Source: an uncultured Gammaproteobacteria bacterium (GTDB lineage: Bacteria > Patescibacteriota > Patescibacteriia > Magasanikbacterales > UBA922). Taken from it: a stretch of DNA of 45,551 nucleotides. A program made the translations under genes and the position numbers. The stretch covers positions 1 to 45,551 of the forward strand of contig CAZRUM010000002.1 of assembly GCA_964603435.1 (NCBI GenBank), given 5' to 3'. This document shows positions 22,815 through 24,248 of the stretch, one piece after another. Within the stretch, counting starts at the first letter, position 1, and each line of letters begins with the position of its first letter. The notes under the pieces were generated by a model. It did not search any database and was not told the origin of the DNA. It was given only the letters and a program-made list of their open reading frames with translations.

Positions 22815-22918
22815 GACTTTGTATATTAAATATAGAGAGGATATTCATCTGGTGGATATTCGCTTTTGATTTGATACGACAAACAAGGAACATTAACCTA
22901 AAGAGGGGGGGTAATACC

Positions 22919-23446
22919 TTGAAAAGAAGTAACCAGTTCATGTTTGTGCCTTTTTGTGCAATGGCCCAGGGTGTGCGAGCGACAGGAATCGTTCGTAAAT
23001 ATCCGGCTATTGTCAATCCTGTCTTTGAGCTTCTGATGCGATTCAACGTCAACATCGTGCAGATGCCTTGTCCTGAGCTGTTCTTCGACAGCTGGTGTAG
23101 GCGTCCTTGTCAGAAAAAGAAGTACGACACTGTGAAAAATAGGAGTGTGTGTCGTCAGGTGGGAACTGGTGTCGTCGGCATGGTAGAGATGTGCCAGAAA
23201 AACGGTGCACAAGTGTGCGGTATACTGGGGATTGAAAGATCTCCTTCGTGTGCAGTTAGTCTGCTAACTGCGCCTCCGCCGAATCGGATAATCAGCGGTA
23301 AGGGTATTTTTATTGAGGAGTTGCAGAGACTGCTCAGGGAAAGGAAATTGGAAGATAGGGTGCCGTTCGTTGGAATCGACGCTATCAGTGTGGGCAAGAC
23401 CTTGCCTGCTATCAGAGACCTCATCGGCCCTCCAGGAAGGAGCTAG
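22919..23446 (+). CDS. GC-rich DUF523-like protein. Start is uncertain among TTG 22919 (best SD spacing), ATG 22940 and the upstream TTG 22871.
   Basis: Keeps the three-Cys DUF523 pattern (FCAMAQG… MPCPELF… ERSPSCA) and a C-terminal match (GKGIFIEELQRLLRERKLE versus GSGVFAALLKREGVEI). GC-rich codon usage; SD AGAGGGGGGG. Confidence 0.6.
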   Translation: MKRSNQFMFVPFCAMAQGVRATGIVRKYPAIVNPVFELLMRFNVNIVQMPCPELFFDSWCRRPCQKKKYDTVKNRSVCRQVGTGVVGMVEMCQKNGAQVCGILGIERSPSCAVSLLTAPPPNRIISGKGIFIEELQRLLRERKLEDRVPFVGIDAISVGKTLPAIRDLIGPPGRS

Positions 23447-23449
23447 CTT

Positions 23450-24160
23450 ATGCAAGAAAGAATAATCAATATAATGCAGAGCTTCGTGAGTGGTCTGAAG
23501 GGGGAGGAGCCGAAAAAAATAGGCATCCTCTTCTCTGGCGGTCGGGACAGCTCTATCCTCGCTGCCGCTCTCGCCTGTGTCTCTGGTGTAGAAATTCATC
23601 TCCTTACTATGACGAACGGCGTGAGTCATGGTTTGGACAGGATCGAGGCACAGGCTGCCAAGATCAAGAGGGTGTCAGAAGAGAACGGCGTTGTGTTGTA
23701 TCGTAAAGTCATCGATGTCACGGATCAGTTTCAGAAGCTGGTCATGCGGGAGATCGAGAAGGATTTCATCAAGCGAAAGTTCGCCAGTCTTCTGACCTGT
23801 GTTGGGTGTAAATACATCATGCATGTGGCTGCACTCGACTACGCGAAGCAGATGGATCTTGACGCCATGGTGGACGGATACAGCGTACGTCAGGAGGAGT
23901 TTCCTGAACAGACACATACCTTCATGAAGCGAGTGGAGAACCTCTACGCTTTCGAAGGGGTGGTGGCTTGTTCGCCGTTGTACGAAGTTCTCGACACTAG
24001 AGAGAACATCATCGCGATCCTCCATGCCTTCGGTTTGGAGAAGAGTGAAGGAAACTGTATGTTTGCTTTCGCCTTCTCACCTGCCTTACCTCAGGATATC
24101 ATCCTCTATCTCGACGCTCTGGAGCGTCGATTGGAGGAAGATCCTTTCATTAGCGTGTAA
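23450..24160 (+). CDS. PP-loop superfamily ATP pyrophosphatase (adenine-nucleotide alpha-hydrolase; LarE/QueC/TtcA-like), GC-rich
   Basis: 236 aa; ILFSGGRDSS PP-loop motif; internal CVGC; SD AGGAAGGAG 7 nt upstream; starts 4 nt after the upstream gene. Confidence 0.65.
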   Translation: MQERIINIMQSFVSGLKGEEPKKIGILFSGGRDSSILAAALACVSGVEIHLLTMTNGVSHGLDRIEAQAAKIKRVSEENGVVLYRKVIDVTDQFQKLVMREIEKDFIKRKFASLLTCVGCKYIMHVAALDYAKQMDLDAMVDGYSVRQEEFPEQTHTFMKRVENLYAFEGVVACSPLYEVLDTRENIIAILHAFGLEKSEGNCMFAFAFSPALPQDIILYLDALERRLEEDPFISV

Positions 24161-24248
24161 TTCAACACGCAACCCTCCCCCCTATTCTTTAGTACACATA
24201 TTTTGTGTAGTAAAGAGCAGAAAGTTTGGATTGCGTGTGGGATAAAAA

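Follow-up and report, generated by a model that had tools for sequence, protein, structure and literature searches.

Genes and signals at the locus

The window analysed here is a stretch of 45,551 nucleotides (contig CAZRUM010000002.1 of assembly GCA_964603435.1, positions 1 to 45,551 of the forward strand), which is deposited as an uncultured Gammaproteobacteria bacterium and is placed by GTDB within the Magasanikbacterales of the Patescibacteriota. It contains three consecutive genes, called A, B and C below. By sequence comparison, gene A encodes a canonical TudS protein, gene B a divergent TudS-like protein, and gene C a homologue of YcfA and TgsB, the PP-loop enzymes of the 6-thioguanine pathway. 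Genes B and C recur together in other genomes, and they are discussed here as a candidate system for the thioamidation of free nucleotides. The locus comprises the following features.

22302 to 22330, plus strand: promoter-like sequence TTGACA-17-TAATAT, TG-extended, upstream of A (consensus scan, 10 of 12 matches)
22356 to 22814, plus strand: gene A, canonical TudS/DUF523 protein of 152 amino acids (PF04463 match)
22815 to 22918, plus strand: spacer between A and B, with the Shine-Dalgarno (SD) sequence of B, GAGGGGGGG, and a run of seven G residues (G7) at 22905 to 22911; the step in GC content starts here
22919 to 23446, plus strand: gene B, TudS-related putative [4Fe-4S] protein of 175 amino acids, TTG start
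23435 to 23442, plus strand: SD sequence of C, GGAAGGAG, within the 3' end of B (read from the sequence)
23450 to 24160, plus strand: gene C, predicted PP-loop ATP pyrophosphatase of the YcfA/TgsB family, 236 amino acids, three-cysteine branch
24240 to 24287, strand unassigned: hairpin with a perfect 22-bp stem downstream of C (inverted repeat, 100% complementary)
24330 to 24372: second hairpin, with a perfect 20-bp stem (inverted repeat, 100% complementary, also called as terminator-like)

The promoter-like site may drive A, B and C as a single unit, and a scan found no terminator-like site between A and B. Sites of this kind are no more numerous in the region than in shuffled sequences, so the promoter is weak evidence. 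The first hairpin probably marks the end of the A-B-C unit, and the second is the predicted terminator of a convergent gene for a 725-amino-acid membrane protein. These two long, perfect hairpins lie in the 210-nucleotide gap between C and the convergent gene.

Only 3 nucleotides separate the stop codon of B (23444 to 23446) from the ATG of C at 23450, and the location of the C SD sequence inside the 3' end of B indicates that the two genes are translationally coupled. An initial annotation, made from the sequence alone, had described tightly coupled genes with strong SD sequences, and both points hold. Gene B is taken to start at the TTG at 22919 (175 amino acids) and not at the later ATG of the public gene call (168 amino acids), because in an alignment the relatives have their ATG at the position of this TTG, and a conserved N-terminal R-S motif lies upstream of the called ATG.

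The A-B spacer includes a block of about 30 nucleotides (22843 to 22873, TATTCATCTGGTGGATATTCGCTTTTGATTT) that, in an alignment of the window with the related loci L130 and L129, is nearly identical in L130 despite about 70% identity of the flanking genes. The block has no Rfam match, and may be a regulatory element for B and C. Searches for RNA genes and riboswitches in or near B-C gave no Rfam hit at the gathering threshold and no tRNA.

The PP-loop motif of gene C is SGGRDS, and a profile of the C family matches YcfA of Erwinia amylovora (PDB 9kq6) over the full length (query positions 24 to 227, chain positions 11 to 212) with an E-value of 2.4e-37. TgsB of Staphylococcus chromogenes scores 143 bits on this profile. 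The AlphaFold2 model of C has a predicted local distance difference test (pLDDT) score of 84.5, and its top 20 Foldseek hits are all YcfA chains, with template-modeling (TM) scores of 0.68 to 0.82; the fold neighbors ranked next are the [4Fe-4S] enzymes TtuA, LarE and NcsA. Sequence identity to YcfA is only about 21 to 26%. The residues of C that correspond to those of YcfA (R32/D33 to R18/D19, Q148 to Q129, F151 to F132, E153 to E134, Q154 to Q135 and E200 to E183) are invariant in the family alignments, and the mapping is gap-free through the segment DGxxx(Y/R)QxxFPEQ. The PP-loop adenylating enzyme of 236 amino acids proposed for the second open reading frame (ORF) is thus upheld by both the SGGRDS motif and full-length YcfA homology.

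YcfA adenylates the O6 of guanine nucleotides and adds L-cysteine, and the pyridoxal phosphate (PLP) enzyme YcfC cleaves the adduct to yield 6-thio-GTP (PMC12494993). In YcfA, F132 stacks on guanine, E134 is the general base, and Tyr128 positions L-cysteine (PMC12494993). TgsB is the PP-loop enzyme of the staphylococcal 6-thioguanine operon (PMC7994395). The position of Tyr128 is occupied by Arg147 in C and its clade of Patescibacteria and mobile elements, whereas most other members of the family keep the tyrosine. Also, the gene calls that cover 10 kb on the upstream side of C and approximately 5 kb on its downstream side include no Aminotran_5 or NUDIX product, so there is no PLP-type C-S lyase or desulfurase partner near C.

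Other PP-loop families were considered for C. The initial annotation had suggested LarE, QueC and TtcA models, none of which fits; matches to these families, and to ThiI and MnmA, are weak and confined to the N-terminal PP-loop region. In the case of QueC, TIGR00364 gives 22.8 bits against a cut-off of 150, and the Pfam QueC model gives 25.6 (cut-off 22), one of four equally weak Pfam and NCBIfam PP-loop hits (ThiI, MnmA, QueC and DUF7411).

A search of 1.84 billion cluster representatives shows the C family to be small, with 686 matches at E ≤ 1e-3, of which 44 reach E ≤ 1e-30. It is divided by three cysteines, which in C are C117 and C120 (a CxxC motif) and C203, the last lying three residues after the Mg-ATP-binding glutamate. 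All three are found in 43 of 72 full-length representatives, none in 26, and a partial set in 3. YcfA and TgsB, the only characterized members, have no triad cysteines, and each is encoded beside a class-V PLP enzyme. By this alignment, C sits in an uncharacterized branch of the YcfA family that has gained three cysteines. That the three are kept or lost together, at the active site, points to a metal or cluster site like those of TtuA, NcsA and [4Fe-4S]-type LarE, and the triad of C is a candidate [4Fe-4S] site. Model confidence is low around both cysteine motifs (block means of 54 to 75).

A three-cysteine site in a PP-loop protein is a feature that C would share with TtuA, NcsA, TtuI and [4Fe-4S]-type LarE, which carry out non-redox insertion of sulfur into an adenylated carbonyl via [4Fe-5S] and can be fed by a separate desulfidase, CyuA (PMC12647591). 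Because three-cysteine [4Fe-4S] PP-loop thiolases that act on tRNA exist (TtuA, NcsA and TtuI), and because C has weak hits to the PP-loop domains of ThiI, MnmA and QueC, C and B might form a split tRNA thiolase that replaces ThiI, TtuI, MnmA or TtcA and thiolates tRNA uridine or cytidine in Patescibacteria. We consider this improbable. C contains no THUMP, zinc-finger or other RNA-binding domain, and so lacks the zinc fingers and tRNA-binding parts of the [4Fe-4S] thiolases, to which its sequence similarity is confined to the N-terminal PP-loop region. YcfA and TgsB, the only proteins with strong homology to C, use free guanine nucleotides, which points to free nucleotides rather than tRNA as its target. 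Moreover, tRNA is not a substrate of stand-alone TudS (PMC11417400), and the partners of the C family, described next, belong to small-nucleotide metabolism.

Several types of protein that are encoded next to members of the C family, or are fused to them, place the family in free-nucleotide chemistry: NUDIX, phosphoribosyltransferase, HD/dGTPase-like, MazG and nucleoside-deoxyribosyltransferase-like proteins. C-terminal NUDIX fusions occur in both three-cysteine and cysteine-less forms, and there is one deoxyribosyltransferase-like fusion (the set comprises P0044, P0045, P0049, P0076 and P0099). These fusions are a single-chain form of the YcfA-plus-YcfB logic. A further protein of about 360 to 430 amino acids, protein X, recurs beside YcfA-like genes of both branches (loci include L011 2914-3999, L029 7239-8429, L033 6612-7904, L035 6636-7862 and L034 1420-2496). 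An HD/dGTPase-like gene often comes next, and L024, L030 and L036 each encode protein X joined to a phosphoribosyltransferase domain. Protein X is absent from the window and has no Pfam or PDB match, with at most a faint similarity to KaiC.

The same PP-loop superfamily includes enzymes that use ammonia after adenylation, namely GMP synthase, NAD synthetase, asparagine synthetase and QueC, and these appear as weak hits to C. It is conceivable, though very unlikely in our judgment, that C is an amidotransferase-type enzyme that exchanges oxygen for nitrogen with ammonia (turning, for example, guanine into 2,6-diaminopurine or U into C), with B acting independently. The MazG and HD neighbors in L011 could be counted in its favor, as we take them to recall the accessory logic of phage pathways for non-canonical bases. 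However, the nearest characterized relatives of C insert sulfur, and an amination reaction leaves unexplained both the co-occurrence of the three cysteines with B and the existence of C-B fusions.

Gene B is related to TudS more distantly. It scores 20.1 bits against PF04463, below the gathering threshold of 34.7, and its best curated model is NF045597 (TudS_rel_CD3072), at 95.4 bits (E = 2.6e-27), below the cut-off of 130. The B domains of an archaeal protein (L029) and of a fusion protein from KSB1 score 124 and 132 bits on NF045597, so that the KSB1 domain passes the cut-off, and some B homologues have precomputed PF27735 hits. Across 20 homologues, C13, C51-P-E53 and S108-P-S110-C111 of gene B show little or no variation, and they line up with the canonical TudS motifs. 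The catalytic residues of TudS are Glu45, Ser101 and Ser103 (PMC10611767); in the alignment, gene B retains the catalytic glutamate, both serines and all three predicted cluster cysteines. The AlphaFold2 model of B (pLDDT 90.2) matches only TudS structures in the PDB at E ≤ 1e-3 (6z92, 6z96, 6zw9 and 6z93), with probability 1.0 and TM scores of 0.48 to 0.56. The earlier description of this ORF as DUF523-like is therefore borne out by the cysteine triad and the TudS fold, but not by the Pfam DUF523 cut-off.

Compared with TudS and RudS, B shares the fold, the cluster cysteines, the glutamate of CPE and the serines of SPSC. It differs in its sub-threshold PF04463 score, an insertion after the CPE motif, a C-terminal extension of about 40 residues and the adenylating enzyme that is its partner. 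RudS is a TudS-DUF1722 protein, and B has no DUF1722 domain. Members of the CD3072 family (NF045597/PF27735) are found beside CD3073, the S component of an energy-coupling factor (ECF) transporter, whereas B in the window lies beside a TudS gene and a PP-loop gene. In public annotation, proteins of the B and C types are called hypothetical or "DUF523 domain-containing".

Gene A is a genuine TudS. It matches PF04463 with 140 bits (E = 6e-41), contains the TudS motifs C..., CPE and SGSPSCG, and is 53 to 79% identical to TudS genes that lie beside B-type genes in other Patescibacteria loci. Identity between A and B is about 17 to 25%, which indicates paralogues from different subfamilies. TudS, a desulfidase for thiouracil compounds, recycles 4-thiouridine monophosphate (4-thio-UMP) and forms a [4Fe-5S] species by removing sulfur from the thiocarbonyl (PMC10611767).

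Association of B and C across genomes

Among loci retrieved with C as the query, B is adjacent to or fused with C in 9 of 13 three-cysteine loci and in none of 11 cysteine-less loci (Fisher p = 6e-4, uncorrected for relatedness). Three C-B fusion proteins (P0041, P0058 of L034, and P0082) are less than 50% identical to one another, being separate representatives at 50%-identity clustering. NQT26656.1 is an example of a natural fusion. The B-C pair is found in Patescibacteria, in a metagenome-assembled genome of Methanoregula (L029), in KSB1 and in a contig classified as viral (L025). The order of the genes varies: it is A-B-C in the window, L020 and L129; C-A-B in L012, L014 and L017; C-B in L011, L021 and L029; and C-B-x-A in L026. 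The closest metagenomic relatives of B, among its best 80 relatives, have C upstream in six of seven cases. The contig of L005-L009 is mobile-element- or phage-like in that it encodes a D5-type primase and a helicase that bears an intein; there, the gene directly upstream of a C homologue is for a short, canonical TudS in place of B. Judging by this gene context, the pairing is well supported, and the functional coupling of B and C is solid.

The initial annotation had called for a search for co-occurrence and knew of no description of the pairing; the pair does recur, in Patescibacteria, Methanoregula, mobile or virus-classified contigs and fusion proteins, and a literature search found no paper that links YcfA/TgsB-type enzymes with the TudS/DUF523 family or that describes the three-cysteine branch. 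Papers on TudS and RudS mention no PP-loop partner (PMC10611767, PMC11417400). A, B and C have no match to a defence system in PADLOC. Neither B nor C has a match among 50,697 GenBank phage records, and IMG/VR holds one locus for each.

Composition and age of the B-C segment

The GC content of the window is 0.363 overall, and is about 0.50 in the segment from about 22,900 to 24,180. In 300-nucleotide windows, it is 0.49 to 0.52 across about 22,950 to 24,150 and 0.26 to 0.40 in the flanks on both sides. GC content at third codon positions (GC3) has a median of 0.276 in the window (robust standard deviation (SD) 0.061, 44 ORFs), and reaches 0.534 in gene B (+4.2 robust SD) and 0.619 in gene C (+5.6 robust SD). 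Gene A, the 5' neighbor of B, has a GC3 of 0.138, in agreement with its initial description as an AT-rich, resident DUF523 gene. The sharply GC-rich segment of about 1.3 kb in an AT-rich backbone is thus a measurable feature in both GC and GC3.

An assembly chimera as the source of this step can be ruled out. Both borders of the B-C segment are matched at 99.95 to 100% nucleotide identity in four other assemblies, from two ENA and two JGI samples, whose matching contigs also encode a gene C protein identical to that of the window. Agreement among four independent assemblies answers the concern about support at both boundaries that had been raised with the first description.

The segment is not unique in the window, which contains at least five more small genes that are GC3 outliers. 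ORFs of this kind without a Pfam match are found at 3546-4022 (GC3 0.55), 8359-8865 (0.46), 35540-36238 (0.70) and 45200-45466 (0.58). Two CDP-alcohol phosphatidyltransferase genes adjoin at 26595-27218 (plus strand) and 27336-28133 (minus strand), one AT-rich (0.30) and one GC-rich (0.49), and give the window a second pair of neighbors from one family that differ in this way. The genome is mosaic in composition, with short GC-rich single genes interspersed in an AT-rich backbone.

The homopolymer runs near the borders of the segment, which had been described as an inverted pair, have no significance as a flanking pair. The C6 run at 24177-24182 was placed correctly; the G7 run, reported at 22897-22903, actually occupies 22905-22911. 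It is the sole G7 in the window, where 1.5 are expected by chance, and it is part of the gene B SD sequence and is absent in relatives, which have ordinary AAGGAG-type SD sequences. Five C6/G6 runs are observed in the window and eight are expected. The best inverted repeat flanking B-C matches at 11 of 14 nucleotides and is one of 27 comparable pairs in 1.75 kb, so both the homopolymers and the repeat are at chance level.

The sharp step in GC and GC3 between A and B could be taken to mean that B-C came in recently as a foreign island and that its DUF523 copy is now displacing the resident one, a displacement that the initial annotation had put forward as a possibility. The other GC-rich single genes in the window, one of them next to an AT-rich paralogue (the CDP-alcohol phosphatidyltransferases), fit such a history. 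However, A also adjoins B in L012, L014, L017, L020, L026, L050, L051, L129 and L130, which makes nine distinct loci at the least. Because this adjacency is widely conserved, and because A and B are distant paralogues from different subfamilies, the idea of an intermediate in displacement fails. Searches at B-C for an integrase, a transposase, meaningful direct repeats and a tRNA found none of these signatures of mobile elements.

Diverged relatives also argue against a recent insertion. Compared with positions 22339-24025 of the window, L129 (1-1685) has the same gene order, with 79% identity in A, 59% in B and 66% in C, and L130 (1-1198) has the same A-B order with 74% identity in A and 73% in B. 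The alignment of the window with L130 is continuous through the A-B junction at 70% identity, spacer block included. In L129 and L130, A is AT-rich (GC3 0.28 to 0.31) and B and C are GC-rich (0.50 to 0.54), and the window has the same step. Third-position identity among these three lineages is 0.36 to 0.53, which is near saturation. Since the junction and the GC step are common to relatives whose synonymous sites are nearly saturated, B-C is not a recent insertion, and a recent island in the course of displacing gene A is hardly tenable. In L130, A is called at 118 amino acids (154-510) and B loses the SPSC motif (722-1120), through apparent frameshifts in a 1.2-kb contig; these appear to reflect pseudogenes or assembly errors.

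B-C is therefore compositionally foreign, yet its arrangement is old and shared with diverged relatives. Near-saturated third positions imply that a single old transfer should have lost its GC bias by amelioration. The composition of B-C may instead reflect repeated replacement of the cassette from a GC-richer pool, or gene-specific maintenance. No donor lineage is identifiable among the relatives found. The nearest (59% for B, or 73 to 74% over a partial copy, and 58 to 66% for C) are in contigs of 0.30 to 0.43 GC, and only L026, at 43 to 51% identity, matches B-C in GC richness. The TudS-C pair of L005-L009 was considered as a donor and rejected, because it is AT-rich and only 52% identical to C.

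Possible sulfur chemistry of the B-C pair

In the reading that we favor, to which we assign a probability of roughly 0.5, B and C form a two-protein, iron-sulfur-dependent variant of YcfA-type nucleotide thioamidation. C would bind ATP at its PP-loop and adenylate the lactam carbonyl of a free nucleotide, the likeliest target being the O6 of a guanine nucleotide, as for YcfA. The nucleophile would be a hydrosulfide that a [4Fe-4S] cluster carries on its open iron (the [4Fe-5S] state), which would replace both the L-cysteine and the PLP-dependent C-S lyase of the YcfA system, and the three active-site cysteines of C would hold such a cluster. B, which is also predicted to bind a cluster, would be the dedicated sulfur partner, as a loader or a donor, taking sulfur from a thio-compound (for example, 4-thio-UMP) or from sulfide; this role is suggested by TudS chemistry, which yields a [4Fe-5S] species. 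Gene A might supply sulfide from salvaged thiouridine nucleotides, or clear thiolated bases from the pyrimidine pool. There is a precedent in vitro, where NcsA and TtuI, both [4Fe-4S] PP-loop thiolases, receive sulfur from the [4Fe-4S] desulfidase CyuA (PMC12647591); here, the proposed donor would be TudS-like, and not CyuA or TtuB. A split thiolation or desulfuration system, as first suggested for this locus, is thus the best reading, although the tRNA target that was offered with it is disfavored by the homology of C to YcfA and TgsB.

The closest known systems are YcfA-YcfC of Erwinia amylovora and TgsB-TgsA of Staphylococcus chromogenes, with which C shares the PP-loop as well as the residues that handle ATP, the base and Mg. 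These systems form 6-thio-guanine nucleotides, are characterized by a two-layer heptameric assembly, and have a PLP partner and Tyr128, whereas C has an arginine, a TudS-like partner predicted to carry an iron-sulfur cluster, and three extra cysteines. The ycf and tgs operons contain NUDIX-type accessory genes, which are also seen with other members of the C family. Unlike these operons, the window has no NUDIX, efflux or phosphatase gene.

Several observations weigh against iron-sulfur-dependent thioamidation by B and C. The functional case for the three-cysteine branch and for B is built from comparisons of sequences and models. The lysine of YcfA that binds triphosphate, K169, is not kept in C, and base specificity cannot be read from the phenylalanine, glutamate and glutamine alone, since uracil, with its O4 and N3-H, fits the same chemistry. 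The triad cysteines could bind zinc or act as a persulfide relay instead. If C does carry a cluster itself, it is hard to see why B should be required, and B might equally well be a desulfidase by which the product is reversed or edited. Also, four three-cysteine loci have no B, and one of these, L031, instead has a serine-acetyltransferase-like gene and a class-V aminotransferase. Distant members of the B family (30 to 40% identity) mostly have other neighbors, so pairing with C is not a property of every B-family protein. Finally, true CD3072-family genes, in Enterococcus raffinosus and Cetobacterium somerae, pair with the CD3073 ECF S component, which is a salvage context.

This last arrangement, in which import and processing are adjacent, is also a point in favor of salvage or detoxification as the function of the locus. 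According to this explanation, A and B would be desulfidases of different specificity (for example, for thiopyrimidine versus thiopurine or 2-thiocytidine nucleotides) that clean salvaged nucleotides in an organism dependent on scavenging, and C would act on this pool in a salvage step of its own that depends on ATP. TudS is a proven recycler of 4-thio-UMP (PMC10611767), B retains the water-activating glutamate and the serines of a hydrolytic desulfidase, and the trio is near a pyrimidine-nucleoside phosphorylase in L017 and near CTP synthase in L012. However, desulfuration requires no ATP, and a salvage role leaves unexplained why B is tightly coupled, and in some proteins fused, to an adenylating enzyme and why the C cysteine triad co-occurs with B. 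In addition, the characterized homologues of C form thioamides and do not remove them. A salvage function thus seems unlikely to us.

On a megaplasmid of E. raffinosus (NZ_CP081847.1, 372385-373429; L047), the CD3072 gene and the CD3073 ECF S-component gene directly follow selA, selB, yedF and a class-V aminotransferase gene. This context hints that the CD3072 family may handle an imported seleno- or thio-compound.

Two routes to a thioamide in a nucleobase are known, namely the persulfide- or iron-sulfur-dependent tRNA thiolases and, for 6-thioguanine, the L-cysteine- and PLP-lyase-dependent YcfA-YcfC system. If B and C act as we propose, then PP-loop nucleobase thioamidation with a different sulfur-delivery module would be new. 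It is possible, albeit doubtful, that B-C together with A represents a third such route by "trans-thiolation", in which [4Fe-4S] proteins of the TudS type would take up sulfur, from sulfide or from salvaged thiouridine nucleotides, in the form of a hydrosulfide bound to their cluster and pass it to a cluster-bearing YcfA-like enzyme, giving 6-thioguanine-type nucleotides.

The branch to which the locus belongs is uncharacterized and is the larger one in the YcfA family, with 43 of the 72 representatives; in it, a cysteine triad, joined in many lineages by a TudS-like partner, has taken the place of the PLP lyase. To our knowledge, TudS-type proteins are known only as degradative enzymes, and their adjacency to and fusion with an adenylating enzyme suggest that they can also serve in biosynthesis. 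The proposed function would amount to a compact, cysteine-independent system for the production of thio- or seleno-nucleotides, and thiopurine production would be predicted in ultra-small symbiotic bacteria. If trans-thiolation does occur, Patescibacteria, some archaea, and some mobile elements or phages would make thiopurine nucleotides, perhaps as antimetabolite weapons aimed at hosts and competitors or as precursors of thio-modified nucleic acids.

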